From assembly GCA_026770705.1 (NCBI GenBank), contig JANJGN010000021.1, positions 30,132,001-30,196,000 on the forward strand: DNA of 64,000 nt. Direction: 5' to 3'. The position numbers and the translations under genes are program-made. The DNA comes from Isurus oxyrinchus (Eukaryota). Positions 1 to 58,195 of this stretch are shown one piece after another. Numbering within the stretch: position 1 is the stretch's first letter; every line of letters begins with the position of its first letter. The notes under the pieces are model-generated. The model saw only the letters and a program-made list of their open reading frames with translations, had not been told where the DNA came from and made no database searches.

Positions 1-1310
1 GCCTCCTCCTCCAGAGAGTTGCCATTTACAACTGGATGTGGCAGGACCGCAGAGCTTCGATCTGACCTGTTGATTGTAGGATCGCTTAGCTCTGTCTATC
101 ACTTGCTGCTTAGGACTACTTGCGTGCCAAGCAGCATGTGTCATAGCTTCACCAGGTTGACATCTCATTTTTTTAAGGTAGGCCTGGTGCTGCTCCTGGC
201 AGCCCTCCTGCACTCTTCAGTGAACCAGGGTTCATCCCCTGGCTTGGTGGTAATGGTAGAGTGGGGGATATGCTAGGCCATGAGGTTACAGATTATGGTT
301 GAGTACAATTCTGCTGCTGCTGATGGCCCACAGCACCTCATGGATGCCCAGCCTCGAGATGCTAGATCTGTTCGCAATCTATCCCATTTAGCATGGTGGT
401 AGTGCCACCCAACACAATTGAGGATATCCTCAATGGTGAAGGCAAGACTTCGTCTCCACAACAACTGTGTGGTGCTCATTCCTACCGATACGGTCATAGG
501 CAGATACATCTGTGGCAGGCAGGTTGGTGAGGATGAGGTCAAGTATGTTTTTTCCTCTTGTTGGTTCTCTCATCACCGCTGCAGACCCAGTCTAGCAGCT
601 GTGTCATTTAGGGCTTGGCCTGTGGTGCTACCCAGCCACCTTTGGTGATGGATGTTGAAGTTCCCCACCCAGAATACATTCTGCACCCTTGCCACCCTCA
701 GTGCTTCCTCCAAGTCGTGTTCAACATGGAGGAGCAGTGATTCATCAGCTGAGTGAGGGCATTGCATGGTAATCACCAGGAGGTTTCCTTGCCCATATTT
801 GACCCAATTGTTTGAAACTTCATGGGGTCCAGAATCAATGTTGAGCCGCCACCACTACTGGGTCTGTCCTTCCAGTGGGATGGTGGTGTCTAGGACATTA
901 TCTGTAAGATATGATTCCGTGAGGATGACTGTCAGGCTCTTGCTTAACTAGTCTGAGAGACAGCTCTGCTAATTTTGGCACTAGCCCCCAAATGTTAATA
1001 AGGGGGACTTACAGGGTCAACAGGGCTGAGATTGCCATTGTCGTTTCCAGTCGATGCTGGGTGGTCCACTTAGTTTCATTCCTTTTTTGAGACTTCGTAG
1101 CAAGAGCATTTAAGAGTCAACCATATTACCGTGGGGTCTGGAGTCACACATAGGTAAAGAACATTAGTGAACCAGATGGGTTTTTACAACAATGGACATC
1201 ATTAATCCAGATTTTTATTGAGTTCAAATTCCAACATCTGGGGGATTTGAACCCACAGAGCATTACCCTGGGTCTCTGGATTTAGTCCAGCGACAATACC
1301 ACTACGCCAT
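1..1310 (-). mobile_element. 5' part of a CR1-group non-LTR retrotransposon ('LINE family B'): tRNA-like head plus decayed AP-endonuclease domain
   Basis: Minus-strand translation gives APE motifs (NIWGLVPKL; ILTESYL; LLHVEHDLEEALRVARVQNVFWVGNFNIHHQRWLGST, ORF 573-776). The 5' end has Pol III A-box TGGCGTAGTGG (1299-1309) and B-box GGTTCAAATCC (1243-1253). Confidence 0.85.
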
Positions 1311-1829
1311 TGCATGTCTAACACATGTAGTTCTTTTTATACTTAAATCAAAGCCACTGACCTATCCAAGCTGAAACTACATGCTATTTTTAAATAAAAT
1401 TTTACTTTTTCCATTCAGCATTATAAAAGTATAGTTTTAATAATATCAATATTCAGACTAGCTTTGCTAAACTTCAGATCTTCTCAATTTTACTAAAATA
1501 GCTCCAACTAGTGAAACAAACATTCAGTCACATCTCTCAATTGAAGTGTTCTAGTGGCCTCCAATGGCAAAAATTATGCACTGCAATATGACCATGATCA
1601 CTATGATCGTTGGTGCAGAGAGGAAAAAATAAAAAAATTTCACTTACACCAATATACTTCAGTGCCGAACCAATATACTCCCTTTGTGAAACCCTTATTC
1701 ACTGTCTCAAATAGCCATTGCCATTATAAGTGGCTGGCCTGTAATCAGTAATAGTACAGCCTCATACAGGTCAAAAACAACCCATATAACACCAATAAAA
1801 TGGAAGGATGAAAATCAGTAATTGTAGGA

Positions 1830-2139: not shown

Positions 2140-2403
2140 AATTATTGTCCATCCCTAATTGCCCTTGTCCAGAGAGCATTTAAGAGCCAACCTCTGGAGT
2201 CACATGTAGGCCAGATTTCCTTCCCTGAAGGATTTCAGTGAACTATATGGGATTTTATGACCATGGTTTCATTGTCATATCAGGCTTTCAATTCCAGATT
2301 TTTACTGAATTCAAATTTCACCATCTGCCATTCAAATCCAGGTCCCAGAGCATTACCCTGGGTCTCTGGAATACCAGTCCAGTGACAATGCCACTACCCC
2401 ACT
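2140..2403 (-). mobile_element. tRNA-headed SINE-like derivative of LINE family B
   Basis: Same head and body as 1100-1310 (cagagcattaccctgggtctctgga...), joined to the family-B tail motif ccatccctaattgccctt also seen at about 16200-16220. Confidence 0.8.
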
Positions 2404-2530: not shown

Positions 2531-3400
2531 TGTTATGACGTGGCAGATGTGTGCCAGGCAGATCAAATCTACGAGGGAAACTTGACCACGCTATCATACC
2601 AGTTTTGCAATTTGTATTTATTTCAAGATGCATGTCCTGAATTCAGAAGTAATATGTCCACCGAGAGATTTTTTTTAGAAAACTAAATTAAACATTAACT
2701 AAAGAAAAGACTTTGACCACACGCATAGATCTATAAATTACATCTATAATAGCTCCTAAAACCCCTAATTAATCTGGCTTCCAGTTACGCCCCCATTAAG
2801 GCAACAGTAAAAAAATATATAGATTTTAAATTGATTCCGGCAAGTTAACACAGTACCTTGGACAGTAGAATTTAAAGTGGCTTTTCCCAGCTTCGGTTTC
2901 TGTACACAGGATTAATTCACAAATACTGGAAGCTTCTCAAACTTCTGGTGGATCTTACAATGCTTTACCTAACACATAGCCTCATTTTCTTTTATATATG
3001 TTTTTCCCATTTTAATGTAAATTCCATTGTTCCCATATATCTTTGGAACTTTACCTTTCTCAATATAAATCTTTTTCATGTTGTCACTAGATTGTTAATA
3101 AACCTTGAGAAAAATAAACACATTCCTCAGCTTGCTTGTTTAGCTGTTTGTCAACAGACTCAGATCCCTTTGAAAACCAAATCCCCCTTCATCTATCTAC
3201 AAATGTAAATTCATGCTAAGACCCCAACATGTTTGCTCATTAAAATATTAAAGGTACTTCTACACCTTACTTCTTTTGACAACTTCAACCTACAGTCTAC
3301 TTGGCTACAAGATGCAATTAAAATCACACACAAACTATCCAAAACCCACTATTAACCTACTTTTACAATAAATCACAATAACATGATGAGAATTATTATA
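2531..3400 (-). mobile_element. Solo LTR (family with 37153-37828 and 56114-56983)
   Basis: Begins tgttatgac (reverse complement of the ...cataaca end at 56983). Blocks are shared with both other copies. Right boundary is approximate. Confidence 0.65.
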
Positions 3401-3409
3401 CTTTTGTGA

Positions 3410-3825: not shown

Positions 3826-3839
3826 TTCTGGTGATTTTT

Positions 3840-4862
3840 AAATATTCATTTACAGGATTTGGGCATTGTTGACTAGACCAGCATTTATTGCCAATCCCTA
3901 CTTGCCCTCGAGGTGGTGGTGGTGGTGAACTGCCTTCTCGAACTGCTGCAGTCCCTGTGGTGTAGGTACACCCACCGTGCTGTTAGGGAGGGAGCTCCAG
4001 GATTTTGACCCAGTGACAGTGAAGGAACGACAATATATTTCCAAATCAGGATGGTGAGAGAATTGGAAGGAAACTTCCAGGTGGTGGTGTTCCGATGCAT
4101 CTGCTGCCCTTGTCCTTCTAGATAGTAGTGATCATGGGTTTGGAAGGTGCTGCCCAAGGAGCCTTGGTGAGTTTCTGCAGTGCATCTTGTAGATGGTACA
4201 TACTGCTGATGTTGTTTGGTGGTGGTGGAGGGAGTGAATGGGCTGCCAGACAAGCGACTGCTTTGCTCTGGATGATGTCAAGCTTAGAGTGTTGTTGGAG
4301 CTGCAACTCATCCAGGCAAGTGGAGTGTATTCCATCACACTCCTGACTTGCGCCTTGTAGATGGTGGACAGGCTTTGTGGAGTCAGGAGATGAGTTACTT
4401 GTTGCAGGATTCATCTCTCACCTGCTCTTGAAACCACAGTACTTATATGGCTAGTCCAATTCAGTTTCTGGTCAATAGTAACCCCCAGGATGTTGATAGT
4501 GGGGAATTCAGCGATGGTAATGCCATTGAGTGTCAAGGGGTGATGGTTAGATTTTGCCTTGTTGGAGATGATCATTGCCTGGTACTGGTGTGGTGCAAAT
4601 ATTACTTGCCACTTGTCAGCCCATGCCTGGATATTTGTCCCGGTCTTGCTGCATTGGACATGGATTGCTTTAGTATCTGAGGAGTCTCAAATGGTGCTGA
4701 ACACTGCAATCATCAGTGAACATCCCCACTTCTGACCATATGATGGAAGGAAGGCCATTGATGAAGCAGCTGAAGGTGGTTGGGCCTAGGACACTACCCT
4801 GAGGAACTCCTGCAGTGATGTTCTGGAACTGAGATAATTAACCTCCAGCAACCATCATCCTT
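3840..4862 (-). mobile_element. LINE family B, RT C-terminal region and 3' end
   Basis: Homologous to 16160-17200; MEYTPLAWMS motif; gtagtgtcctaggcccaaccaccttcagctgcttcatcaatg (GSVLGPTTFSCFIN). Confidence 0.85.
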
Positions 4863-7329
4863 TGTACTCTACCCCCTCCAAAGCCAAGTACATCTTCACT
4901 GAGCTACAGTGCCCACTACTGATTGCAGCACTCATGTCTGAGCAAGGTTCTATACAACTGAAGCTTCATTTCCTCACTTTTGCATTCCAGTTACTTGAGA
5001 TAAGGCCAATTGGGGTCTTGGCCTTTTGATTACCTTGTGTACACTTGTACCAGCTTCCAGTTTCTCAACATTAGGAAAACATTCCAAATTGTCTTTCTCA
5101 AACTGAAATTGAATAACACTTTCCCACACTGATGTTCATGTGCCATAGTTATGCCCATTCACTTCATCTGTCTATGTCACTTTGTAACTTTTAGCTCCTA
5201 TTAATAAAACTACTAAGTCTCCTAACTCAGTATTAACTACACACTTAAACAACTCTTGGTCATTCATCCAAATCATTGATATCTATTATGAAAAACTGAA
5301 GCACTGCTGCCTATTCTCAAAACTCTAAGTGGGCATGTGAAAAAAAAATCATGCCCATAAAAATCCTAATCACCAATTATACATGTTTTCCATTGGCAAT
5401 TTGTACTTTAATTGCTTTGCAGGATTTTGAAACAATAGACAACTAAATTAAAAGACGCAAGGTCCAGCTTCTGTTCTTTGATTCGAATCATTACCACTCA
5501 TTTAGCTTAATGCCTGCTCGACACACTGCGGATTCAGGTAAATATCTTGCACTAAACAGAGAACTGAAGAATCTCAATGCAATACGCTAACCAGCCTTCT
5601 TTCAGTTGTTAGTTATGTATTTTCAATTTTTATTTCAAATTTCCAGCTTTCCCATTTGTAATCTTGATGGAGTTTTATCTTGTTGGGAAAGGCAGAGGCA
5701 AGAAAAATATCATTTTATGATCCAGGTTCTACATCTACATAAAGAAAATTTAAATGAACTATAATTTTCATGCCCTTTAGTACCTTTTGCAACAATTAAC
5801 TTCCACTGACAATGTGTGAGCTACTGCTGGAAAAATATAATGTCCAATAATATAAAAGCATAATTATTAGAGCTCAGAACGTGTGGGATGCTCATTTAGC
5901 ACATACAATGAAGTGGTGGCAAAATTCTCTTCCAATGAGGTAGAAAATTATTTAAAAAACAAGGGGTGAGAAATGGGATTGACTGTGAAATGGCATCCAT
6001 GGCGTGTGCGCACACATTTGGGATGGTTCACGGCAGATGCAATATTGGAGAGAGCATTACCGCACACAGTGAACTTCTGCTAGATGTAGAGCAGCCAATC
6101 AGCGTGCAAAGCTGATGAGACATCAACTGTGTCATTTTGGAGCTCATTGCTCCAGCCAACATCCTCTCAACCTCACACAGCTGAGCGTGTATTCAGTGCC
6201 AGGGAGGACCCCATCCAGCATTATTTAAAGGGGTTATCAACTAAGTTGTTGCTGATTGATTTATTTTTCTAGCTGTTGCTTCAATCCCACAAGTGTTTGG
6301 TGCTTTGTACAGTTGTTTGAGGTTCCAAGCGTCTCCAGGGGGTGGTGCGGCAGAAGCTGAAGGAATCTTTGGTGACTTAAGGACTCCTGCACAAACCAGC
6401 TGCTGCCAGATATGAGAACGATAGTAGGCCTGAAATATAGCCTGAATTAGAGAAAGAACATAAAACAGAAAACTTTGGAACCTGAGCTCTCCCATATCAT
6501 GCTATTCTTAATAATACTCAATAAAAGTGGACATTTTAATCATGTGTGATTGTGCCATTCTTCAATGTCTCCCATGTCAAATTCACTTCCTGAATGACTG
6601 TCAGCACCTACTGCACTCATAACATAACTGTCCTTTAAGAGGTACAGTCTGGCTCGAAATGGTGCTAGCCACTCATGATATTGGTCCTCTGCTGATGCAC
6701 GCAGCCAAACAACACATGTTAAGCACTGGCTGAATGCTGAAATCAGTAGGCATGCTACTTGCATGGCAAATAACAGGTGTGGGTTAATCATACATCATGA
6801 TCCCTGTGCCCATTTTTGGGAGGTATTGCATTTAACCCCCAAGATGCCTTATACAGAGTAAAATTCCTCTGCCCACCAAATTTGTACATTTATCAAACTT
6901 CTCAAATGGTTTTGAGGATTTACCTAGTTAGTTCAACACGAAACACCATCCCATAGGAGAACCACCCATTCCTTAAAACGGCAGCGTAATTTGAAGTACC
7001 TATTATCTACTGATGTAAATGTAGCTCAGATTGAACATAAATCCTGGTTTTACTTAGCATTCTGCATAGGCCACTAGCTTTCTCAGATTTGTAAAATAAC
7101 AATTAATAGAATACAGCTTATTCAAACTATATAGTAACAGATAAACAATAATAATCAGATTCTGTGACTGAAAACAATTGAAGTTTATAGCATACAAGGG
7201 GGGCATTTGGCAATTCTTTGCTTTCCTAATTGTTTCAATGGGTATAGAATTACAAAAAATAAGATATTAATGGATGCAGTGAATGGGAGAAAAAAAACAA
7301 TGGCAAATGGATTTTGATGTAGGCAAGTT

Positions 7330-7900
7330 ATTCTTTCATAGGATGTGAGCATCATTGACAAAAATCAGCATTTAATGCCTCTAATTGTCCTCGAAACTGT
7401 AGTGGTGAATTGCCTTCTTGAATAGCTACAATATTTGTAGTGAATCCCACACTGCTCATAGGGAGTCCCAGGATTTTACTCAATGACAATGAAGGAATTG
7501 CAATATATTTCCAAGTCAGGATGATGAGATGAGCAGGTGATGTTGCTGTACACTTGCTGCCTTCTAGTTGGCAGAGGTCACAGGTTTAAGTTCTGCTGAA
7601 GAAGCCTTGGCAAGTTGCTGCAGCAGACCTTGTAAATGATGCAAAGCAGACATGGTGCTCCAGTGGTGGCAGGAATGAAAGTTTAAGCTGCTGCATAGGA
7701 TGCCAATTAATCAGACTGCTTTGTCCTGGATAGTGTCAAGCTTCTTGAGTGTTGTTGGAGCTACACTCATGCAGGCAAGTGGAGGGTATTCCATCACACT
7801 CCAGACTTGTGCTTTGTAGGTGGTGGAATGGCTTTGGGGAGTCAGGATGCGAGTTACTCCCACCCTTTGACCTGCTCTTGCAGTCATAATATTTATGTCT
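7330..7900 (-). mobile_element. LINE family B, older 3' fragment
   Basis: Diverged alignment by eye to 3845-4450 (e.g. caggcaagtggagggtattccatcacactcc). Confidence 0.75.
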
Positions 7901-9391
7901 AATTACTGGTGGTTGGTGAATCTAGGACAAGGTCTAAAAATTAACCACAGGTCTTTTCTCCTACAAACAGAACTTTAGAGCTCTCTTTTGCAAACAGCAG
8001 TCGATGCTAGGTCAATTGTTAGATTAAAGTCTGAGATCGAGGCATTTTTGTTAATCTTAAAGGCATATCAGACAAAGGTTGATGTGTTGGATTTTCATCT
8101 CCTCAAAGACAGGAATTGGCTTGTAAAACACAGAATATAGTTTTTTCTTTTGCAGGAGAAACAATTTTCCTATTCCTTCCCAACTCCACACCCTTTTCAT
8201 GTAGCGTTTTTGCAGACTGAGAAAGCCTCAGGTGCAAAATGTAAAACGCACCTCTTCAGAGGTTCCCATTGTGAGGGCCACAAAAAAAATTGCATTTCCT
8301 GCCCATACTATTTTCGTGTCTTGGTGCATTCAAAATAAATGCACCTCCTTGGAGAGATTGTTACTACTGGGGAAGCCTGCGGAGGAGTCAGGAATATGCT
8401 GGCAGGTAAGTATAAAATGTTTTGACATCTTAAATTGTCACTATGAGATGCTGTATTGTAATGTGGATGTGTTTTTAATGCAGTGACTCATCTTAGGGCT
8501 CTGTCCTACAAAGGTGAGTTGACCATTACATTACAGAATTGTGCATGTGTTGCAATGCATTAGAGCAGAAAGTGCCATAATGCATTCATGAATGTGGAAA
8601 AATGTGTTGGTAAACCCTCCCATCATGTTTGGTTCTGTGATTTAAATGTACAGATATGACTTTGAAATCCACCACCCCCACTGTTGAACGTTAAAAAGTA
8701 AGCACCTGCTCCCCATTAATTGTCAGACAATCTGCTTCAAAATGGAAAGGTAATGTCATCTATTCTTTCCATTTCAGGGTCTTTTGACAGTAATGATTTG
8801 TTTTGATAGCTCTGGCCATTATGAATGTTTGACTGAGTTTCAAATGCTACAAATACCTTAAGCTCAGCAGGTGGACTATTGACAAAACTACTCAGAGGAA
8901 TGACTGACAGTTTAAAGAGGTTGTAATAACATTCTTCCTTTGGTGCAGTTGAGTACATGGCTGTTTGTTTATGGCAATTAAGGGGATGAATTTTTTTTCT
9001 GTGGGAGTACAGATTTTTCTTTGCAGTATCAATGACAGATTTCTGAATGAGAGTTTTATTAGATTGTCACAGGTTTCATTTTTTTTTTTACACCTGCATT
9101 TAAAAGAGTTCACATAGTTATTGTATGGCTCCTGAGCACTGTACAGACTGGATAACGGTAAGTGACTAGGTACGATATCCGGGGGGATTGGGGGGGTGGG
9201 GGGGTGCTCTGAGCAGGTATGAAGTGGTATGGGTGGGCAGTGGGAGGCAAGGGTGACATTTAGGAGGCATTGATTCAATTTTGGGCTGCTGTCTCCGAGA
9301 ACTGAGGCGGGCCTTCCAGCTAGCCTGCCTCTGCACCCACACTGTCCTCGCGCTGCACTGCAGCTTGAAAACGGCGCTGCAAGCCTAAACT

Positions 9392-14900: not shown

Positions 14901-15014
14901 CTTATGTTGTGATGGCCTCCACTGAAAATATGTGCAATGATTGCATTTCTCCTTCAGTGTGAAACATTTGCATGGTTACCGAGTTGCTGCGCAACATGAA
15001 CAAACGTTGAAGTC

Positions 15015-15660
15015 TGGCACAATGGTAGCACTTTTTTCTGAATCAACAGGTTGGGAGTTCAGGACTTGAGCACATCATGTAGGCCTGATTTTTTTTATTA
15101 TTCAGCCATGGGATGTGGGCTTCACTGGCTGGGCCAGCATTCATTGGTGAGCTGCCTTCTTGAACCACTGCAGTCCCCATGTGGTATAGGTACACCCAAT
15201 GTACTGTTCCTTTTTTGTGACTTTCTGGCCATTGATTACAACTGAGTGGCTTGTTAGGTCATTTCAGAGGGCAGAGCCAACCACATTGCTGTGGGTCTGG
15301 GGTCACATGTAGGACGACAGATTTCCTTCCCAGAGGGGCTATTACAACAATTGATAATGGTTTCATGGTCATCCTTAATATTTTAATTCCAGATTTTAAT
15401 TAATTCCAATACCACCATCTGCCGTTGCGAGATTCGAACCCCGGTCCCCAGAGCATAACCCTGGGCCTCCAGATTATTAGCCCAGTGACAATACAACTGC
15501 GCCTCCCCTGACACTCCAAATAATGCAGCCTTGAGTGCTTGAGGTACCATATATCAGATGAGATGTTAGATTGAGTTGCTACCTGTCTCTCAAGTGCATT
15601 TGAAATATTCCATAAATGAAAGACTATCGGCTTTAGCAACAGAAAACATGGAAGCTGGGC
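15015..15660 (+). mobile_element. Old tRNA-derived SINE (DeuSINE-like), interrupted by the 15089-15506 insertion
   Basis: Head tggcacaatggtagcac...ggacttgagcacatcatgtagg|ctgacactcc...cagatgagatgttag resumes after the insertion. A similar body lies at about 54590-54710. Confidence 0.6.
15089..15506 (-). mobile_element. Bipartite SINE-like internal-deletion derivative of LINE family B
   Basis: B-box GGTTCGAATC (15431-15440). The body matches 1078-1310 and the other end matches the family-B 3' end (16160-16290). Flanked by cctga direct repeats (15084-88 and 15507-11). Confidence 0.85.
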
Positions 15661-16159
15661 CAATTTAATCAGGGGAGACCCCGCATCAGTCCCTTGTCAG
15701 CAAGAGGACATTCCCTAATTAAGTTGGAGGGTGGGAGGGGCTGATGTGGGATTCCTGGCTATTGATGGTGGGATGTCAATTAGGCTCATTAGTAATCATA
15801 TTGGCACCCATTATCCCAGAGAGTACCACAATTTAGTGGTACCTCAAGGATTTAACAGGAGCCTTATGATTTTTCCGCACACTCGGAAGGCCACTCTGCT
15901 ACCCTACCAGGCCTTCCAGGAGGTCTCTCTTTATCAGTCACTCAGTGCCTGATCAGGGTACCCAGAATTGGGGACTGCTGAAAGCCTCTCTTAAGCCCTT
16001 GTCTCCGACTCCCCTGTCCTCCTGTCTTGCAACCTCAAGTCTATTCTCACTCACTTTTGTACTGGGGTCCCACAACGTTCCTGGGCTGGCAGCTCTTGGC
16101 GAGCAGGTCTTCTGCTGCTGGAGACCTCAATCATGGGGGAGGCCTGACAGTGGCCATTT

Positions 16160-17842
16160 TTAAAATTCATTTACAGGATGTGGCTAGTCCAGCATTTATT
16201 GCCCATCCCTAATTGCCCTTAAGAAGGTAATGGTGAGCTGCCTTCTTGAACTGCTACAGTCCCTGTGGTATAGGTACACCCACAGTGCTGTTAGGGAGGG
16301 AATTCCAGAATTTTAACTCAGTGACAGTGAAGGAACTGAGATATATTTCCAAGTCAGGATGGTGAATGACTTGGAGGGAAACTTGCAGGTGCCTTCTTGA
16401 GGTATCTGCTGTCCTAGTATTTCTAGATGGTAGTGGTCGTGGGTTTGGAAGGTACTACCTAAGGAGCCTTGGTGAGTTTCCGCAGTGCATCTCGCAGATC
16501 GTACACACTTTTGCCACTGTTTGGTGGTGGTGGTGGAGGGAGTGAATGTTTGTGCATGTGGTGCCAATCAAGCAGGCTGCTTTGCGCTGGAGGGTGTCAA
16601 GCTTCTTGAGTGTCGTGGGAGTGCACTCATCCAGGCAAATGGGGAGGATTCCATTACACTCCTGACTTGTGCCTTGTAGACGGTGGACAGGTTTCGGGAA
16701 TTCAGAGATAAGTTACTCATCGCAGGATTCCTAGCCTCTGACCTGCTCTTGTAGCCACAGTATATAAATGTCTAGTCCAGTTCAGTTTCTAGTCAATGTA
16801 ACCTCCAGGATGTTGATTGGGGGTGTGGGTGGATTCAGCGATGGTAATGCCATTGAGTGTCAAGGGGCAATGGTTAGATTTTCTCTTGTTGGAGATGGTC
16901 ATTGCCTGGCACTTGTGTGGCATGAATGTTACATGCCACTTGTCAGTCCAAGCCTGGATATTGACCAGGTCTTGCTGCATTTGGACATGGACTGCTTCAG
17001 TATCTGAGGAGTTGCTAATGATACTAAACATTGTGCAATCATCAGTGAATGTCCCCACTTCTGACCAAATGATGAAAGGAAGGTCATTGATGAAGCAACT
17101 GAAGATGGTTGGGCCTAGGACATTACTCCTGCAATGATGTCCTGGAGCTGAGATGATTGACCTCTAATAACCACAACTATCTTCCTTTGTGCTAAGTATG
17201 ACTCCAACCAGTGGAGAGTTTTCCCCCGATTCCCATTGACTTCAGTTTTGCTAGGGCTCCTTGGTGCCAAGTGCTGTCATTCACACCTCACCTCTGGAGT
17301 TCAGCTCTTTTGTCCATGTTTGAACCAGGGCTGTAATGTGGTCAGAAGCTGAGTGACCTTCGTGGGACCCAAACTGGGCATCAATGAGCAAGTTATTGCT
17401 ATGCAAGTGCCGCTTGATAGCACCATTGATGGCCCCTTCCATCACTTTACTGATGATGGAGAGTAGACTGATGGGGTGGTAATTGGCTGGGTTGGATTTG
17501 TCCAGCTTTTTGTGTACAGGACACACCTGGGCAATTTTCCATATAGCTGGTAGATGCCAATGTTGTAGCCGGACAGGAACAGCTTGGCTAGGAGCGCAGC
17601 AAGTTACGGAACACAGTCTTCAGTACTATTGCTGGAATATTGTCAGGGCCCTTAGCCTTTGCACTATCTAGTGCCTTCAGCTGTGGAGTGAATCAAATTA
17701 GTTGAAGACTGGCATCTATGATGCTGGGGACCTCCAGAAGAGGCCGAGGTCGATCATCCACTTGACACTTCTGGCTGAAGATTTTTACGAGCACTTCAGG
17801 CTTATGTTTTGCATTGATGTGCTGGCTTCTTCACCACTGAGG
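16160..17842 (-). mobile_element. LINE family B, RT domain and 3' end (decayed)
   Basis: CPVHKKLDKSNPANYHPISLLSIISKVMEG...AQFG; GTFTDDCTMFS...QQDLVNIQAWTDKWHVTF (ORFs 17281-17526, 16789-17058). Confidence 0.92.
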
Positions 17843-19489: not shown

Positions 19490-20460
19490 ACAACAACTTG
19501 CCTTTATATAGCATCTTTAACATAAAACACCCCAAGGTGCTTCACAGGAGCATTATAAAGTAAATAAAGATACTGAGTGACATAAGGAGATACCAAGTCA
19601 GATGACCAAAAGCTTGGTCAAAGTGGTAGATTTTAAAGGAGGAAAGCAAGGTTGGAAGGTGGAGAGAGAAGATATAGCGTGGTATTTAATGGAGATGAAG
19701 GGGGTCTCCCTGCTGCTTGAAGATGCCAGTAGAAGCCCCGTGTCACTCCTTTAAAGGAAGGTCCTTGGAATTAAGAGCCACTTGACTGGGGGGGCTTTCC
19801 CTGGGATCAAGGATCCTACGGAGAAATGTGGGTCATCTCCCAATGTGGTTCCTCGATCAAAGGCACTCAGAGTTTGATCACGAGACCTGACCTTGGGAAG
19901 GGGGCACCCGCTGATAGTACCCCCGCTGCCCTTGCTGCTGACTCCCATCTCCTGTGACCCCAGCCCCTCGATTCCCTCCCAGGTTACATGGTGGGAGGGA
20001 GATTGTGGGTTGGGATCACAGGAGATGGGAATCAGCGGCAAGGTTGGCGGGGGTGGCTCTCAGCGGGTGCCCCCTTCCCAGTGTCAGGTTCCTTGATTTA
20101 GACACTGAGTTCCTTTGAATGAGGGACCACCCTGGGACCTGGCAAGCAACACCTCATGAGTTTCCTTGTTGTGCTTCCCGCATGTCATGACATTGGGTTA
20201 ATATCAGTGGCGCGCAGGATGAGGCTCTTAAATGGCATTAATTGCCCATCCACAGGCTGTCCCACCACAGACTTAATGAGGATGGAGGTGAGAAGGCGGT
20301 GGACCCATCACTAAACTTGCAACAGGGGAGGGCATTAAATTCCACCCATAAGGAAGGAATTTCAGAACTAAGGGGCTAGGCAACAGAAGACATGGCCATC
20401 AGTGGTCGAATGATTTATATTGGGGATGCTCAAGAGGTCACTATTAGCTGAGTGCAGATA
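19490..20460 (-). mobile_element. L2-type LINE 3' fragment interrupted by a MITE
   Basis: caacaacttgcctttatatagcatctttaac... end shared with 24258, 26910 and 43130 copies; resumes after 20350. Confidence 0.65.
19677..20347. mobile_element. MITE (Harbinger-like) with internal inverted repeat
   Basis: Imperfect TIRs gcgtggtatttaat / attaaattccaccc, flanked by 3-bp ATA duplications (19674-76 and 20348-50). Internal IR about 19925-19965 versus 20007-20053. Confidence 0.65.
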
Positions 20461-21797
20461 TCTGGAAGTAAAGTAACCTTTATTTGAATGTAAAGCTCCA
20501 GTCTGCTGGATCATATATACCTTTGTTATTTGTGACAACTTACCATTGTGTGACCCAAGCCATACACTTGCTCTTGATTTAGAAAGAAATTCAACAGTTT
20601 TTTTTTCATATTTGCATTTTATTTAAAGTTCTTTTTGCAAATATCAATCAAATCAGTTTCAAACAGTTAATGCAGCCTCTGTTTTGCAAATGATTGGTTA
20701 GCGTTTCATGGAATAGCTTAGGGAAGAATAAAAATCAATTAATTGGTGAACTGGAATTTCATATTCATTTATACTTTGAAATAATTGCTGTTATAGGAAG
20801 AGAACCTGAGCTCAAAGTAACACAACTTTCTGGTCGTGAAATTTGACTTCCAGTAGGGCTTAACATCTGTAATTGTCAGTAGGGTACAATAGATGGGAAG
20901 TTTCTTTATAAAGCTTCAAAGAAATTTGAATTTTCCTTTCTAGAACTAAATATGTTTTAAAGAAATGATTAGATCCTCAAGTAAAGTATGTAAGTATTTT
21001 GCACATCGACACAATGTTTACAATGTGTTTATGCAAAGGGGAAGAATGAGCAATATTCTATTATTCCTTCTGCTAAGAGCTATTTCATCCTTGCACACCC
21101 TGTTTGGCCCTCATGTAAACTTCAATATACTTATAGTGGTAATTTGGTTTAGGTACTGATGGGTCCATAAGGATGGTCTTTGCTATTTTTAGTAGTTTAC
21201 TGCAAAAACAAAGTTTGTGCAACATGTGTAGTACAAACACGTTATTTTTCATTCTTCAGAGAAAATGTACAGCGTTAGAAGACCTAAACCCAAGGGTGCC
21301 TTGCTCCATTTAAGTACTATTTCATTTCATTGACATAAGAGAATTACAAAAAGGAAAAGACTTACTGCTCTATCCAGTCTGTTGCACAGAATTATGATAC
21401 CCCTACTGCATCACGTCCACTCTCCAGAGCCAAAAATCCCCTGGCAAACAGGGGTCTATCTCAGCTGTCCTGTACAATGTGCTCTACCCTATTTTTCAGG
21501 ACCTTTAGATTATTTTAGTTGCATCATTGTCCAGTTTCATGATTCTGTTATAACAATCATGATATTATCTGTTGTCCTACAGCACATTGTCATATTTTGA
21601 CCTCTTTAGAGTTGAATTTTGTTCAGTCAAATAAAATTGTTTAAATCAATGATTTGTTTAATGGATTTTTGCTGAAAAAAGAGACATGTCTAAACTTTTC
21701 ATCTTGCACTCACTAGGACACTCACAAGAATGCCGTTATAAGGGGGAAAGCAACAATTTATACTGTATGTGAATTCACCATTTCCCTTCCTCCCTTC

Positions 21798-22863
21798 TTG
21801 AAGCAGAGGGTGATGGTCAAGGGGTGTTTTTGTGACTGGTTGCCTGTGTCCAGTGGGGTTCCACAGGGATTGGTGTTGGGTCCCTTGCTGTTTGTGATAT
21901 ATATAAACAATTTAGACTTGAATGTAGGAGAGTTGATCAGTAAGTTCGCGAATGACACGAAAATTGGTGGGGTGGTAAATAGTGAGGAGGATAGCCTTAA
22001 ATTACAGGAGGATATAGACAGGCTGGTCAGATGGGCTGATCAGTGGCAAATGGAATTTAATCCAGATAAGTGTGAGTGATGCACTCAGTCAGGACAAACA
22101 AGGCAAGGGAATACACGATGAATGGTAGGACCTTGGGAAGTACCGAGGATCAGTATATGTCCACCAGTCCCTTAAGGTAGCTGGACAGATAGATAAGGTC
22201 ATTAAGAAGGCATATGGGATACTTGCCTTTATTAGCTGAGGCATAGAATATAAGAGCAGGAAGGTTATGCTGGAACTGTATAAAATGCTAGTTAGGCCAC
22301 AGCGAGAGTATTGCGTGCAGTTCTGGAATCTGCATTATAGGAAGGATGTGTTTGCACTAGAGAGAGTGCAGAGGAGATTTACCAGGATGTTGCCTGGGCT
22401 GGAGAGTTTTAGTTATGAGGAGAGATTGGATAGACTCGGGTTATTTTCCCTGGAGCAGAGGAAGGTTAAGCGGGGACATGATTGAGGTGTATAAAATTAT
22501 GAGGGGACATGGATAAGGTAGACAGGAAGGAACTTTTCCCCTTGGTGGAGGGATCAATAACTAGGGTTTAAAGATTTAAGGTAAGGGGCAGGAGGTTTAG
22601 TGGGGATGTGAGGAAGAATTTTTTCACCCAGAGGGTGGTAGGAATCTGAAACTCACTGCCTGGAAGGGTGGTAGAGGTAGAAACCCTCATAACATTTAAG
22701 AAGCATTTGGATGTGCACTTGCTTTGCAATGGCATTCAAGGCTATGGGGCCTAGTGCTGGAAAATGGGATTAGAATAGTTAGGAACTTGTTTGACTGGCG
22801 TAGACTCGATGGGCCGAAAGGCTTTTTACTGTGCTATAGACCTCTCTGACTATGACTCTATGA
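21798..22863 (+). mobile_element. CR1 LINE, 5'-truncated RT region and 3' tail
   Basis: KQRVMVKG...SGVPQGLVLGPLLFVIYINNL...KFANDTKIGG...WQMEFNPDKCE; LYKMLVRPQREYCVQFW; tail gactatgactctatgac. Confidence 0.95.
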
Positions 22864-22955
22864 CCATCAGGGGTGCATGCTCCATGGCAACACCACTTGG
22901 CAGCTTCACATACTGTATAAATTGTTGTTTTCCCCTTATATTGGTATTCTTGCGG

Positions 22956-22991
22956 ATGTCCTGATGAGTGCAAGATGAAAAGCTTAGACAT
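22956..22991 (+). ncRNA. Minimal type-I hammerhead ribozyme motif
   Basis: atgtc-CTGATGA-gt gcaag at-GAAA-AGCTT-A-gacat: stem I atgtc/gacat, intact core, palindromic AAGCTT stem III, UUA cleavage triplet. Confidence 0.7.
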
Positions 22992-24011
22992 GTCTCTCTT
23001 TTTTCCAGCAATGCTCAAGTTCTATGCTGCCAAATGGCCATTGGATTATTGTTATTGAGACTGTTTCTAAGTGGTAGAACTCAGACATTGTCACAGCCTC
23101 AATAATTAGCAAATACATAATGGACAGTCATAAAAAGAATTCCTATCCAGGGATGAATAGTTATTAAGAGATAGAAATAATAGAATATTCCTAATTATCT
23201 TCTTTCACCCTTTACACAAACATCTAAAATCCTTTATAGTACAGTATAGTATATACGTACAGAAAATTTCTTGCCTCTGAAGCTTTATGCCATAAGGTTT
23301 AGTCCCCTTTGTCATTTACTAGCTTACCTGGGAAACATAGTCAGACTGTGGACTCAGGCTGTTTAGTCTGACCATCCAGTCTGACTATGTGTGAAATGCT
23401 GAAAGGCTGGTTTGAGAAAGGAAAAGTTCTAATGCAATGTGTCAGGCTGGACGACAGTGTGAATTTTTTTAGTGTTCTCCAAGGACAGAATAATAATCAT
23501 AATCGGGATCAGTGCAGAAGAATCAATTCCCTTTCTTAATTAGTTAGATTTTTAAAGATATTTTGCTTTTATTTGTTGTGCTTGGAGGATGGGGCAATCT
23601 GGGCTCAACATTTTGCCAGCAGAGGTTCAACTGAAGCAAGATCAGGGCTATATTTCTGTCCTCCGCCTTAATTCTACTTGGGACTCCATGTGTTAGTTTA
23701 ACAGAAAATAGGCAATGTTCAATGAGTGCCTAAGAAAGTATGAAAAACTAACAGTAGAATCATCACTATGATGATAACTGATTTACTGCTGTATCGGTAT
23801 CCAGGGAAAGTGTATTTGCAACTATTCAAAGTATGAACTTTATTCAAAGGTATAGAAGTCTGGGATTTTGCAAGCAAATTTCTTTTGTTGATGTATTATT
23901 GTGATTGGGTTTAGATTTTAGGTATATTTTTTTCAATTACCTAAGAATTCTGACTAAAGCTATTTCATAAAGTTGTGCTATCAAATCCTAACCCACTATA
24001 ATAGTACACTT

Positions 24012-24100
24012 TGAAGGGTCATGAGGACTCGAAACGTCAACTCTTTTCTTCTCCGCCGATGCTGCCAGACCTGCTGAGTTTTTCCAGGTAATTCTGTTTT
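24012..24100 (+). mobile_element. Short Penelope-type element with a truncated hammerhead-like motif and 15-bp TSD
   Basis: Flanked by tataatagtacactt (23997-24011 and 24101-24115); nearly identical to the reverse complement of 52213-52301. Confidence 0.85.
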
Positions 24101-24254
24101 TATAATAGTACACTTGCTTATTTTCATGGGGTAAGTTTTACCAGTTCTTATACCCATTTCTAAATGAAACTTAATGTAGCATAACTCAATTTTAAGGAAC
24201 AGAAGGGGAAAAAGTGATTGCATTCAACCTGTCTTGCAGAAGTCAGACAGGAAC

Positions 24255-37152: not shown

Positions 37153-37828
37153 TATTATGACACAGCCGATGATAAGGGCTGAGTTGTTCAAATCTGAAGG
37201 AAACCTGAAACAACTGTCATAATCCATTTTTGCAATTTGTATGTTTCGAGATGCAGGTTTTGAATTCACTAGTAATAAAACCACCAAGTCTCCAGTGGTT
37301 TTTTATAAAACTAAATTAAACATTTATTAATACAAGAAAAATTATAAGCACATACATATGTCTACAAAATTACTACTATGGTAACTACAAAAATCCCCCA
37401 ATTAATCTGACTCCCAGTTACACCCTGTTAAGGCAACAATAAAACTCATAGATTTAAAAAGACTCCAGGCAAAGCACATTTGACCGTACGAATTCAAAAT
37501 GAGGTTCCTTGCAGACACAGTTGCAGACACACTGACCTTAAATGCCTCTGCCTTATACACACACAAACTCCTTTCGGCTTTTACCTAGCTTTTTCTTTGA
37601 ATGTAAATTTTCAACAAATGCAAATGTACCCCCTTAACATCTATGTTTTTAAACCTCCCCATGTTTATCTAATTACCATTTTAAACCTACTTCTTTCTAT
37701 GCATCAAAGCACCCAGACTAGCTGGCTTTAATCCAATTAAGACATACACACATATAGACAGACACCACTAAACTCTATTTAAAAAAAATAATTTCCAATA
37801 ACATTATGAACATAATCTCTTCATGACA
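37153..37828 (-). mobile_element. Solo LTR with 4-bp TSD (ATGC)
   Basis: tattatgac...tcatgaca termini; atgc at 37149-52 and 37829-32; homologous to 2531-3400. Confidence 0.75.
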
Positions 37829-39163: not shown

Positions 39164-40371
39164 ATGGGGATTGTGCTCTCTGCTGGAGGCACCTCCTCTG
39201 AGGTTAAAGAGAGGGGCAGAAGTGAGAGGAGGCCAGGTGTCCCAATGCAGCTACCTGGGGAACGGCCTGTGGGAGGAGAGGCGCAGGCACAAGGGGGGCA
39301 GGGCCAGCTGGCAGTGCAAGGCAGAAAGGGCCACAGAAGACGCCACTATCCTGCTGCCAGGGTTCACAGGCGGCGATGCAGCTACCTCAAAATGTCCGAG
39401 GTGCAATGCCGAAGGAGGCTCCATCTCTCAAGGGAGACAGTGACCCCCATCTGACAGATGATTGGCCCTGAGCTCTGTGCCAACTGTATGGGTGGACACC
39501 CTATGCCAGTAGCTCTGAAGGTCACAGTGGCCCTCAATTTATATGCCTCCAGCTCTTTCCAGGGCTCAGTAGGCTTCCTGTGTGGAGTCTCCAAAGCTGC
39601 GTCACACTGGCGATAGAAGCTCTGTGGTGGGCATTAACTGTCATTCATTACCGTACTGTTGAGGCCAGCCAGGCCGAGCAAGCCAGAGGCTTTGCGGCGA
39701 TTGCTGGGTTCCCCCATGTCCAGAGTGCTATAGACTGTACACATGTGGCCATCAAGTCGCCAGCAAATGAGCCTGGTGCCTTCTTCAACAGGAAGGGCTT
39801 CCACTCCATGAACATGCAGATAGTGTGTGATCACAGGATGCAGATTCTACAAGTCTGTGCAAGGTACCCAGGCAGCTCCTATGATACTTATATTCTGGAC
39901 ACTCCCAGGTCCCGAGGCTCTTCAGTGTTCCAGCCCAACTGGATGGATGGCTGCTGGGTGACGAGGGCTATTCCCTGAAAAGGCGGCTCATGAAGCTTCT
40001 CCACCACCCAAGAACAGAGGCCGAGCAGCGGTATAACAAGAGCCAAACCTCCACAAGGTCTCCACATGGAGAGAACCATAGATCTTCTCAAGATGTGCTT
40101 CCGATGCCAGGACTATTCATGGGACCCTCCAGAGAGTTTGTCACTGATAGTGGTTGCATGCTGCACTCTCCACAATCTGGCACTGGCACGGGAGGTCCCA
40201 GTGGAGGAAGAGGATGTTGATGGAGCTGCGCAGGCCACAGTTGATGAGTCCAGTAGTGAGTCCGAGGATGAGCAGGGTGAGGAGAACACTGAGGGCATAG
40301 ACACTGACCTGGGTAACCTCCAGGGTGGCAGGGATACCCGGGATGCTTTGATCCAAAGCTCCTTCAGCTAG
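39164..40371 (+). pseudogene. Harbinger (HARBI1-like) DDE transposase, frameshifted
   Basis: GFAAIAGFPHVQSAIDCTHVAIK..FFNRKGFHSMNMQIVCD..VCARYPGSSYD; WLLGDEGY; AEQRYNKSQ; ERTIDLLKMCFRC..CCTLHNLA, spread over several frames. AATAAA at ~40476. Confidence 0.9.
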
Positions 40372-40687: not shown

Positions 40688-42567
40688 TTAAGGCACTTTA
40701 CATTTATGGTTACAGGTGCTACATCGGGGTGCTCCCCCCTCGCTGGCAGCAACATTGGAGACAGGCTGCTCACTGTGCTGTCTTGTTGGCCTTGATGACC
40801 TTGGCGGTCGTCCTCTGGCCACTGGAGCCTGTGAAGGCCCAGCCTGGGAGGGAGCAGCCTGTGCCACGGTTGGCATCTCCCCAGTCGCTGCAGCCTTATC
40901 AGATGCCACGGTCACTAGCAGAGGGACGGAGGAGCTGCTGTCGTTATCCAGAGTGCCCTGAGAGGAGCCCGCAGAGACGACAGGCAGTTTGTGCGCCAAC
41001 GTGAGGTCACTTTGGACCTCCCTGCTCACCACTGATGGATGGGCACCTAGCTGGGATACTGGGTGCCCCATCCATCTCCCACACTGACAGTGATCACCTG
41101 AGGTCATTGCCGGTGTGAGAGTTTGCAGACCCAAGCGCAACCCCAGGAACCCTTGATTGAGTCCCTGGAGTAGCCTCTCCATGAGAGTCGCCACCCTCTC
41201 CATGGAGGAGGCACTATGCTCGGCCATGAGGGTCAGTGCAGTGCTCATGCTCTCCAGGGACTCCTTCCAAACGGAGGCCATGGCACGCATTCCCTCATGT
41301 ATCTCCGCCAGATCCTCCCGCACACCCTGCTGGACTTCCAGCATCTGCTGCCGCAGATTTGACTCCAGAGGCCCATCGTCAGCCATTGACTGAGCATTGT
41401 CCTGGTGTCTAGTAGTCCTTCGACTGCCAGTTCCCTGGGCACTCTCTGCCTCTACCTGTAACTCAAGCGAGTGTGAAGTGCTCTCACCAATGTACACTGA
41501 GATACTAGACGGCGATCTTATGCTCACCGAGGTGCTGGTATCTGCGCTGGTGCCTGCTTGACAGAGAGGGGGTGATGCAGGTATGTGCTCAGCATGGTAG
41601 TCCTCTGGGGTTAGGGGTGGGCCTTCAGGGTCCTCATTGCAATTGCCTGCTGGTGAGCCTAAAAAGGAGAAGAAAGACATGTCATTAATTTAAGTCATGA
41701 CGCTGTCACTGTCCATGCCAGGCACCCTGGTGAGACAGCAGATATCTACCTAATGGTGCCCCCATCTTTTGATTATCAATGGGGACTCCAGTTTCGAGGC
41801 TCACATCAATATAGAGAAAACACTACAATGCTTGCAATAGCCGATGTTCTCACCTTGGTGCACTGCACTCTTGCCTTCGTCTTGCCCCCCAACCTCACCG
41901 TGGCTGGTTGACCATGGCGCCTCTCCAGATCCAGTGCCTCCTGCTCATAGCTTGTCAGGATTAGGAGGTGTGGGGGCCCCCGCCAGTCCGCGACCCCTCA
42001 ATATTGTTATGGGATGTCTTCTCCTGAAAGGATAGAGGAGCATTGATTAGTGCACCCTGTACCTGCAACGCCATTGCAGCCTGGCCATCCCCAGCTGAGG
42101 AACACCTGGCAGGGCTCAGCCAATTCATGGCCCTTGAGCCGCAAGGCACTCAGTCCAAGAAGCCAGGACTCACCCTCTTGGCCAGCTCCGGCGTCATTGA
42201 CAGTTACCACTCTCACTCTAACGCCTCTCAAGTCCACTGGGGTGATGGCCAGCCCTTAACTGTTCTGCACACTAACCCATGCCAACATGGTACTCACCCT
42301 TCCCGATCACAGCAAATCGTTGAAGCACTTCCGGCACTATACCATGTGCGCCTCACCAAGTCATGGCTGCTCACCCTGGATGCCACCTCCTCCCAGGCCT
42401 TTTTGGTGAGGTGCGGGGGGCCTCCTCCCGTCTCTGGGGCCAAGGGCTTCCCTCCCGGCTCCCACCACCTCCAGAAGGGCAATGAGGCACTTATCAGAGA
42501 AACTCGGGACCAATGGCCCCGCCAACCTGCCCCCTCACCTGCCGTGTCCAACTGCACTGGAATCCAT
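40688..42567 (-). pseudogene. Harbinger Myb/SANT-like DNA-binding protein gene (about 3 exons: 42567-42298, 42023-~41854, 41658-40688), disrupted
   Basis: FSDKCLIALLEVV..TKKAWEEVASRVSS..RRTW..CRKRFND trihelix motif across frameshifts; EKTSHN after an acceptor; GT/AG sites at the exon edges; long last exon with a coiled-coil-like stretch (ORF 40688-41680). Confidence 0.8.
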
Positions 42568-43005
42568 CGAGACTTCAGCATCCTTCCATGGCAGCCTTCC
42601 AGAGGCTGCCTGGGCCACTTTTGAATCGACCGCTGGGTCATCATTGGACCCAGTGGACATCTTACCTTTGCCCACCCCTTCCCAGAGCTTCCCCAGCTGT
42701 CTTTCATGCTGGGTGGCCTTAATTGGCCCGCTGGTGTGAAATAGCAGGGCCGTGCCTATTGCGGGCAGCTTTCCAACTGCCCCCTGCCTGAGCCCGCTCA
42801 CCAAGGGTAAAATTCTGCCCCAGGATATGGATTCAGCAGATGCATCATCTCTCACCTGATCGTATTCTACAATTATGTTCTCATTACAAATTAACCAGTC
42901 GAAGTGGTTTCTTTTCTTCAATTCATGAAATTGTTTAATGCTGCCATCACAGAGTTCTAACCAACAGGTGATGGCTGTAAATTCACTTCTAAATCTGTAT
43001 TTCAG

Positions 43006-45095: not shown

Positions 45096-46179
45096 CCGAA
45101 AGGCACTATATAAATACAAATTGTTGTTGTTGCTTGTACAGAAATTGGATTCAGTTTGTGTTTTAGTGATCTCCTTTATTCAAACTCACCTGTCTGAACT
45201 GACCAGCAGGTGATGTAACCTGCATAAAGTGATCTGGTGACAAAGGAGGGTGACTACTGACACACATATACAGAATGGCATTTTACAAAGCAGTTAATCC
45301 TGGGAGGGAAGCAGAGTTGTTGAAGAAAATAATTGGCAAAGAACAAGGAAAAAAATCACAAAGGGAGAGACTGTGACACATTGTCAGAGCTGAATGGGAA
45401 CAAATAACACCGCTTTGTTTGGCGAAAGCTTCTCTAAGACTGCCAGGCACCTTATCTTTAATGAATCTGTCTCACTGCTGGTTGTGAAGTGCTGTTCGGT
45501 TGTATCCTGACTAGCTCGATTCGCTCCCTGTCTCACACATCATGTTTGTGCTTCTGTTTTGTTTGATCTTCCTGTCTTGCCTACTCCACTGAGGATCGAT
45601 AAATGACAATGATTTTAGGTAATTCATTTCAGTTAACGATGTCTGAATGCAGAGAGGACCCAACAATATTCAACCTTTTGTTGCTCAATGCTGACACCAG
45701 TGACTCCTTTTCTGTCTTGGTTTTTCCTTTCTGTCATGTCATTTTTCCTTTTTCCGTATTTTCTCTGTCTACCTCCATTTTCTAAGGGCTGAAAATGCCT
45801 AATTGTCAGCAAAAGTGGTTTTCCTGTAGGTCACAAAAACGCAACAATTCTTTCTGCATGGACTTGAGTGGTGAGATTCAGAAGGGCTGTTCAACATCAT
45901 ACACCACAACAACAACTTTCATTTGTATTGCATTTGTTTAATATAGTAAAACTTCCCCAGGAGTTCCCGAGAAGTTATCAAACACCGTGTGCTGTGGGGT
46001 TGTATGCAGTAACAGCACCATTCCTGGAGACAATTGGATGATTCCCCTGTCAATCACACTTGGATCTTTGTTGCTGCTAAGGTACATGGGTGTACAGCAG
46101 AGCTGGAGTTAACCATGTAGCACATGTTCCATTATAAATACTATGCACGCAGCCATGCAAAAATAAATGTCATGGTAGA

Positions 46180-52074: not shown

Positions 52075-52440
52075 TGGACCATCAGAGGTTTATGCCCCTA
52101 GCTCTGGAATTCCCTCCCTAAACCTCTCTGCCTCTCTAGTTCTTTAAGATGCTGCAGAAAGCCTACCTCTTTAACCAAGCTTTTGGTCACACATCCTAAT
52201 ATCTCCTTAACAAAAACAGAATTACCTGGAAAAACTCAGCAGGTCTGGCAGCATCGGCGGAGAAGAAAAGAGTTGACGTTTCGAGTCTTCATGACCCTTC
52301 GACAGTTAGCCAGACCTGCTGAGTTTTTCCAGGTAATTCTGTTTTTGTTTTGGATTTCCAGCATCCGCAGTTTTTTGTTTTTATCTCTAATATCTCCTTA
52401 TGTGGGTTGGTGCGTATATTTGTCTGATAGCATAGACTTA
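52075..52440 (+). mobile_element. L2-type 3' end, interrupted by the 52210-52386 insertion
   Basis: ctctggaattccctccctaaacctctc...aaagcctacctctttaaccaagcttttggtcac is the reverse complement of the ends of the other L2 copies. Confidence 0.7.
52210..52386. mobile_element. Young Penelope-type palindromic element with a hammerhead-like motif and 14-bp TSD
   Basis: Perfect 40-bp inverted arms 52210-52249 and 52309-52348; TSD ctaatatctcctta (52196-209 and 52387-400). Confidence 0.88.
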
Positions 52441-57389: not shown

Positions 57390-58195
57390 GAAACACAAAA
57401 GCAGGTCAAATCCAATACGGTCAATTACCGCCCCATCAAGTCTACTTCGATTATCAGCAAAGTGATGGAAGATGTCATCGACTGTGCAATCAAGCGTCAC
57501 ATACACAGCAATAACCTGCTCACTGTTGCTCAGTTTGAGTTCCGCAGGGCCACTTCAGCCCCTGACCGCAATAAAACCTTGGTCCAAACTTGGACAAAAG
57601 AGCTGAACTTGAGTTGAGGTGAGAGTGACTACCCTTGACATCAAGGCAGCATTTGACTTGAATGTAGCATCAAGGAACCCTAGCAAAGTAAAGTCAATGG
57701 GAATCAGGGGAAACTCTCCACAGGTTGGAGCCATATCTATCACAAAGGAAGATGGTTGTGGTTGTTGCTGTTCAATCATCTCAATCCCAGGACATTGCAG
57801 CAGAAATTCCTCAGGGTAGTATCCTAGGTCCACCACCTTCAGCTGTTTCATCAATGACTGTCCTTCCATCATTAGGTCAGAAGTGGGAGGTTCACTGATA
57901 TTTTAAAATGTTCAGCACCATTCACGATTCCTCAGATACTGAAGCATTCCGTGTCCTTATGCAGCTGGATCTGGATGACATTCAGGCTTGGGTTGATGAG
58001 TGCCACACAAGTGACAGGAAATGACCACCTCCAACAAGAGAAAATCTAAACATCTCCCCGTGACAATCAATGGCATTACCATTGGTCAATCCCCCACCAC
58101 CAACATCCTGGAAGTTACCATTGACCAGAAACTGAACTGGACAAGACATATAAATACTGTGGCTATAACAGCAGGTCAAAGACTGGGAATTCTAT
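57390..58195 (+). mobile_element. LINE family B RT fragment
   Basis: KSNTVNYRPIKSTSIISKVMED..AQFEFR; RVTTLDIKAAFD; ILEVTIDQKLNWTRHINTV. Confidence 0.9.

Follow-up and report, generated by a model that had tools for sequence, protein, structure and literature searches.

A dead Zenon LINE copy in Isurus oxyrinchus whose family begins with a tRNA-like head, a candidate Pol III promoter

Layout of the Zenon elements in the window

The window, a 64,000-nt stretch of Isurus oxyrinchus DNA, opens within a retrotransposon that lies on the minus strand and has its 5' end at about position 1312. Judged by its resemblance to published consensuses, it is a copy, now decayed, of the elasmobranch Zenon LINE (CR1 group), a single-ORF retrotransposon of ~3.3 kb. 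Its parts were delimited as follows.

1232..1312, minus strand: tRNA-like head and 5' end of the element; boundary at about 1310–1313, from contig depth and consensus 5' ends
1299..1309, minus strand: A-box, from a box motif search
1276..1290, minus strand: anticodon-like arm; 2 loop bases are missing here, and the family has AGT in the loop, Thr-like on the anticodon alone
1243..1253, minus strand: B-box; canonical in 6 of 7 published elasmobranch Zenon consensuses, that of HypSab being one base short
1105..1231, minus strand: conserved non-coding body, deleted at several points in this copy; not a Deu or Meta domain
997..1104, minus strand: linker to the ORF, with a 17-nt word at 1095–1079 and, at 1079, a conserved ATG not in the endonuclease frame
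1..1005, minus strand: broken ORF2, comprising the AP endonuclease and the region that follows, cut by the window edge

The A-box (1309–1299) and B-box (1253–1243) formed the sole A+B pair in the window, and no pair was found in 100 shuffles. The codons of the endonuclease N-terminus, NIWGLVPKL, began at 996, which is 247 nt past the B-box on the minus strand; both the boxes and the distance of about 250 bp given by the original prediction were therefore correct. The spacing from A-box to B-box was 45 nt in this copy and is longer in the published consensuses.

The ORF2 of this copy was interrupted by frameshifts and stops, and the window edge places the 3' 60% of the element, along with any TSD, outside the window. 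A profile made from 13 of 18 full-length relatives (930–1000 aa; three near-duplicates and two distant proteins were excluded) aligned in order over 1023–22, spanning the frameshifts and stops (profile positions 15–376 of 955; best piece 82.9 bits). The N-terminal endonuclease piece alone gave a weak profile match (i-E = 0.069), and PF14529 matched the ORF2 below its cut-off (E = 0.012). Pairwise BLASTP of the N-terminal 26 aa against protein P0017 was not significant, neither a protein search with the endonuclease piece nor a related-locus search with P0013 produced a match, and a scan of metagenomes and viruses with a pattern for the endonuclease start gave 0 matches. Upstream of the endonuclease there was no ORF of 60 aa, as expected if there was no room for ORF1; this is not the peculiarity it had been taken for, since published Zenon elements normally lack ORF1. 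With its ORF2 broken the copy is dead, and 'autonomous' can therefore describe only the Zenon family. The proposal of an autonomous, SINE-headed LINE stands in so far as the head is fixed at the family 5' end in the published consensuses, but fails for the copy on which it was based.

The flank of this element was also observed in a second organism, where a contig (run X5, record 24; 1286–1420) ran the same flank into the head with 3 differences in 135 nt; the insertion is thus common to a close relative.

Further Zenon-derived elements were located in the window by sequence match or by their possession of the head.

15089..15506, minus strand: short non-autonomous element; head, body and linker (as far as 15207), followed by the LINE 3' end and an A8 tail
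15084..15088, no strand: 5-bp TSD, left copy, flanking the 15089–15506 element
15507..15511, no strand: 5-bp TSD, right copy, outside the head of the 15089–15506 element
2145..2402, minus strand: second short element; head and body run into the LINE tail start at a different breakpoint, with no linker and the 3' end lost
16157..17830, minus strand: 5'-truncated Zenon copy, with RT region, 3' end and short A tail
3834..4868, minus strand: 5'-truncated Zenon copy, 3' end, by sequence match
7329..7901, minus strand: 5'-truncated Zenon copy, 3' end, by sequence match
57393..58193, plus strand: internal Zenon RT fragment, by sequence match

One long headed form and two distinct short forms are therefore present in the window. 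The 17-nt linker word at 1095–1079 recurs at 15223–15207 with 16 of 17 positions identical (P = 0.0002 against 5000 shuffles), so the linker does recur in an independent copy near 15.2 kb, as had been claimed. However, no endonuclease is present there: past the linker, which is retained as far as the base preceding the conserved ATG, the element scored 75 and 85 against two LINE tails and 14 against 900–1078. It resembles an internally deleted, non-autonomous derivative composed of 5' and 3' ends, rather than a second headed LINE, and so by itself ties the head to the linker and not to the ORF. Like a SIDE, it consists of a LINE 5' end joined to a 3' end, with an A tail and a TSD. The original prediction proposed looking in full-length copies for TSDs outside the head; in this short element the 5-bp repeat had that position (15084–15088/15507–15511). 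Among the sister pieces the tail was A8 at 15089, A5 at 16157 and near 3834, and degraded at 7329; the Zenon tails in the window finish with an AATAA(A)-like word, and poly-A tails are reported for Zenon of all phyla (PMC13343379).

The union of AP endonuclease and RT in a single ORF was seen through the endonuclease at 1–1312, the RT of the sister pieces, and the shark proteins P0012 and P0015, which join both regions. P0012, a protein fragment from Heptranchias, matched both window positions 1–111 and the RT piece at 16157–17830. PF00078 (RT) matched the sister pieces below its cut-off (E about 1e-5), and RT homologues were found among Mobula, Heptranchias, Pristiophorus and Heterodontus gene models and marine sequences at 30–48%.

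The head in the elasmobranch Zenon family

Assignment to Zenon was made by eye, through identity of the 5' end to consensuses that their authors had placed in this clade. Stuart et al. 2026 (PMC13343379) describe Zenon from elasmobranchs, coelacanth and hagfish, in all cases without ORF1 and with poly-A tails. Ten Zenon consensuses, which were grown outward from RT seeds, are given in their Supplementary Table 2; seven of these (CarCar, HypSab, RhiTyp and ScyCan Zenon-1, and SquAca Zenon-1 to -3; 2886–3314 nt) come from five elasmobranch species. When the first 400 nt were compared by eye, all seven elasmobranch consensuses started 4–10 nt before the A-box and proceeded into the same body and linker, whereas the head was absent from all three consensuses of other vertebrates (hagfish, n = 2; coelacanth, n = 1). 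This distribution argues that the head belongs to the family. As published, elasmobranch Zenon has the same head, body, linker and endonuclease start, with a single ORF, an A tail and a length of about 3.3 kb; the 1–1312 copy showed no family-level difference from this, only decay. EptBur Zenon-1/-2 and LatCha Zenon-1, which belong to the same clade and likewise have a poly-A tail and no ORF1, differ from it in being headless and in having T4+ runs within the first 400 nt. We infer that the head is older than the shark–ray split.

Contig depth in public sequencing runs agreed with this assignment. Fourteen of the 24 listed runs had a share of 0.26–0.42, and three organisms were represented. 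Depth over 760–1420 was taken from three DNA-type runs (X1, X5 and X8), as summed contig depths and not copy numbers. It was ~1e5 in most bins across head, linker and endonuclease, dipping at the deletions of the 1–1312 copy. The A-box bin had a depth of 40,000–106,000 and the next bin 800–2100, while beyond this cover was single-copy or absent; this was a drop of about 50-fold or more past 1312. Linker depth matched endonuclease depth in the three DNA runs. No contig spanned head to endonuclease among the 32 pieces listed, and several bridged the linker and the endonuclease start (e.g., X5 964–1085 and X1 933–1051). Hence, the seven consensuses, together with a depth that was high over head, linker and endonuclease and single-copy past ~1312, bear out the claim that the LINE itself starts with this head.

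The family is a substantial component of several genomes. The Zenon-masked share given by PMC13343379 is 6.8% in white shark, 4.4% in dogfish, 3.2% in catshark, 0.7% in stingray and skate, and 0.018% in chimaera; short derivatives are probably counted within these shares, and the skate is without a listed consensus. Copies with an intact ORF2 are rare by the same authors' count (0/2313, 3/612, 1/1419, 1/294, 0/396 and 0/59). In their Supplementary Table 3 the intact-ORF2 cell for SquAca_Zenon-1 reads 675852, which corresponds to the spreadsheet date June 3750 and is probably 6/3750.

The Zenon family, its lack of ORF1, Zenon-derived deletion elements and RTE-1_DAn's tRNA-like stretch are already known. 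The head itself is present in the data of Stuart et al. yet undiscussed in the main text (PMC13343379), which contains 0 mentions of tRNA, promoter or polymerase, and one of SINE, in the reference list. Neither a tRNA head on elasmobranch Zenon nor a Pol III-driven LINE was found in the literature by title and abstract, a coverage that excludes most subscription papers, Repbase and Dfam. CR1-Zenon-like LINEs are named in a whale-shark preprint, where tRNA goes unmentioned in the passages available, and the published passages on the nurse-shark NSRE contained no link to headed Zenon.

The head is tRNA-like by its A- and B-boxes only. ARAGORN found no tRNA for the head, nor did Rfam on the 1–1312 head; the 15.2-kb head gave an Rfam tRNA match of 15.2 bits (E = 0.88), under the cut-off of 29, and nothing reached gathering level across the whole window. 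By eye, five of the seven elasmobranch consensuses had a 5-bp stem with a 7-nt loop reading AGT, which by anticodon alone points to a Thr-like tRNA origin. Two letters inserted at 1282 in 60–73 contigs per DNA run correspond to the loop bases missing from the 1–1312 copy. Folding was not significant for heads, decayed bodies (z = +1.3, 0.0 and -1.3) or tail, except in the 2.3-kb head (z = -2.8).

Identification of the body as the Deu domain of SacSINE1 was considered and rejected, because the published Deu motif was at background in the body. With one 22-nt motif for each domain, the best matches in the element 5' region were 10/22 for Deu and 12/22 for Meta, i.e., background. A body pattern scan of GTDB genomes and viruses gave 0 matches. 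SacSINE1 and the DeuSINEs (PMC5499810, PMC4824008, PMC7245038) are alike in being tRNA-headed short shark elements, but SacSINE1, compared through its published motif and description, has an L2-type tail, and the Zenon 5' region is without the Deu motif. Around the 15.2-kb element, 15010–15088 and 15507–15620 on the plus strand form an older tRNA-headed SINE that the element has split. The best Deu motif match of the window (16/22, at 15544) falls inside this host, which is for that reason probably a SacSINE1-like DeuSINE.

Terminator runs, translation and the choice of polymerase

By the usual division, LINEs, which are autonomous and coding, use Pol II, whereas SINEs, which are dependent and non-coding, use Pol III; RNA made by Pol III has no cap. 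Kojima 2018 (PMC5786205) likewise assigns LINEs to Pol II and SINEs to Pol III.

On the sense strand there were 0 T4+ runs in the 1312 nt of the headed copy. Across seven Zenon-derived pieces, which share ancestry and are not independent, there were 3 such runs in 6071 nt of sense strand against 13.6 expected (P = 0.0008), a count that takes in the tails and both short elements; one of the three sits at a tail end (T4 at 16165, beside the 16157–17830 tail). A4, C4 and G4 runs occurred as expected in the same 6071 nt. The depletion was also seen in two non-overlapping long Zenon pieces (1 against 6.2 expected, P = 0.012), and under a dinucleotide-preserving null applied to five Zenon pieces with one tail end left out (2 against 7.6 expected, P = 0.005). 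Five CR1 pieces in the window served as a control and contained 26 T4+ runs in 6153 nt against 25.8 expected. Of 628 overlapping stretches of 1311 nt in the window, the 1–1312 copy among them, just 2 were without T4. The depletion was weaker under a first-order Markov null (P = 0.04), and under a synonymous recoding null T4 occurred 0 times against 2.6 expected (P = 0.054), with P = 0.015 for T3.

Codon usage was skewed likewise. The ratio of Phe TTT to TTC was 2:9 in Zenon and 24:8 in CR1 (P = 0.003), and NTT:NTC was 22:47 among in-frame Zenon codons, compared with 64:67 for other NNT:NNC (P = 0.025); Phe itself was rarer in Zenon (2.2%) than in CR1 (4.0%). By eye, TTTT was found in the first 400 nt of none of the seven headed Zenon consensuses and all three headless ones. 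The T-run signal is specific and moderate, and the depletion of T4+ runs on the sense strand fits transcription by Pol III.

The translation start was inspected in the same consensuses. An ATG directly follows the A-rich linker in six of the seven elasmobranch sequences (by eye), out of frame with the endonuclease; it is 92 nt before the Asn codon in the HypSab consensus (counted by hand) and 83 nt before it in the 1–1312 copy. Where this copy has an in-frame ATG, at 1038, the consensuses have ACG, so that the ATG looks like a product of CpG decay. Two intact relatives have a predicted start 7–9 residues before the same Asn. As the conserved ATG is out of frame, translation of ORF2 would need a non-AUG start, a frameshift or reinitiation; no canonical slippery site was seen by eye. 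Because Pol III RNA is uncapped, translation of ORF2 goes unexplained if Pol III is the polymerase.

The best explanation, to which we assign a probability of roughly 0.55, is that the 1–1312 element is a dead Zenon copy from a family whose 5' end is a tRNA-like head, and that this head likely enables Pol III transcription of the whole element. The principal alternative accepts that the head is fixed in the family but has the coding RNA made by Pol II, whether the promoter lies in head or body or transcription reads through from host genes; the boxes would then be a relic, a processing signal, or of service to the short derivatives. Pol II is the normal polymerase of LINEs and a capped RNA would solve the problem of translation, while the poly-A tails reported in Zenon of all phyla, the AATAA(A)-like word that ends the tails here, and a T-run signal that is marginal under the recoding null all favour it. 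Yet it leaves unexplained a depletion that affects T runs alone, on the sense strand alone, and is absent from CR1 in the same window, as well as published consensus 5' ends that lie just upstream of the A-box in five species. We consider transcription by Pol II the less probable of the two, though by no means fanciful.

Pol III transcription can be extended to a joint reading of a coding, autonomous LINE that is transcribed from a captured tRNA promoter and recoded against terminators, whose uncapped RNA is translated with no in-frame AUG, and which spawns SINEs by internal deletion. Taken whole this is tentative, its chances being a little under even. Under the best explanation, a headless Zenon would have acquired the head on a single occasion, prior to the shark–ray split. 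The internal boxes would be bound by TFIIIC, such that each full-length insertion carried its own promoter, and selection against TTTT would prevent Pol III from stopping within the ORF. Translation of the RNA would follow a non-standard route, and ORF2 would insert this RNA by target-primed reverse transcription starting at the poly-A tail; through internal deletions, ready-made, SINE-like parasites would then arise in one step.

If Pol III does make Zenon RNA, the polymerase split between LINEs and SINEs would be broken by a family that masks 0.7–6.8% of five elasmobranch genomes, by the shares in PMC13343379. There would also be a natural 3-kb Pol III message translated without a cap, SINEs could be born in a single step, and a conserved SINE body would have a candidate source. 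Should Pol II prove to be the polymerase, the outcome is a stable SINE-headed LINE that had gone unremarked, and a correction to annotation.

Origin of the head and other repeats

In each of the three DNA runs, contigs leaving the body end (15150–15320) were of two classes, tail and linker-like, with respective counts of 275/267, 565/412 and 356/337; loose ends of the linker class agreed poorly (0.52–0.55) after the first dozen letters. In run X17 the tail class occurred alone (46) among the contigs listed. At least 15 minor joints linked the body, or a short linker, to the tail with differing letters in between. A separate observation from run X17 concerned record 10, a 2824-nt contig of depth 565 that matched 15232–15311 and in which the sequence after the body resembled neither linker nor tail; loose ends occurred there in 7 contigs. 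This could be another partner of the body or a host transcript.

The origin of the head can be read in the opposite direction, i.e., an older SINE, composed of head, body and Zenon tail, donated its 5' half to a partner LINE. This concerns origin only; it suits either polymerase and is compatible with the best explanation given above. One short form, that of the tail class, dominates at the body end, as a donor might. SINE pieces at the 5' ends of BovB are one precedent for a SINE-like part in a LINE. A further precedent is provided by RTE-1_DAn and elements related to it (Kojima 2018, PMC5786205), LINEs with a tRNA-like sequence that matches many SINE2 elements, although these belong to the RTE clade, unlike Zenon. 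CR1-Zenon LINEs mobilise tRNA-headed SINEs in bivalves (PMC11481361), and module exchange is described as common (PMC5499810).

Against a donor, the short forms have several breakpoints, two of them in the window in addition to the minor joints, and in the 15.2-kb form the linker is kept until immediately before the conserved ATG. Internally deleted elements are also a known product of Zenon. In Persaeus, a SIDE of lepidopteran Zenon, the 5' and 3' ends are joined by internal deletion, with a poly-A tail and variable breakpoints (PMC6740152); as described there Persaeus lacks both tRNA homology and a Pol III promoter, whereas the shark short form has A- and B-boxes and is SINE-like. Finally, Zenon-masked DNA is nearly absent from chimaera (0.018%, against 0.7–6.8% elsewhere; PMC13343379), which leaves no sign there of an older host for the body. 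A SINE donor is possible, with the odds against it. Given the several breakpoints and the published precedent of Persaeus, the common short form is probably a child of the headed LINE rather than its donor.

That the 1–1312 arrangement is a chance neighbour, with a SINE upstream of a 5'-truncated LINE, is very improbable despite the abundance of short elements with the same head, and although any TSD would lie outside the window, since no tail or poly-A separates body from endonuclease, linker depth matches endonuclease depth, and the same join opens all seven published consensuses, which rejects this reading barring identical mis-extension of all seven.

Other repeats were noted in the window. 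The CR1 LINE copies that provided the T-run control, with endonuclease and RT, are at 21700–23011, 46179–47887, 48607–49850 and 59650–62414 (plus strand). A DDE_Tnp_4 transposase fragment at 39472–39978 (plus strand, E = 2e-12) faces GC-rich ORFs at 40688–41689 and 42294–42755 (both minus strand); Pfam gave no match on 40691–41689, and the fragment with its facing ORFs is likely to be a PIF/Harbinger element. Inverted-repeat elements occur at 52209–52349, 24013–24101 and 19838–20137; 24013–24101 and 52212–52300 are 99% identical, which suggests a young MITE-like family. A further repeat family has three copies, about 70% identical, at 2552–3404, 37155–37501 and 56120–56981.
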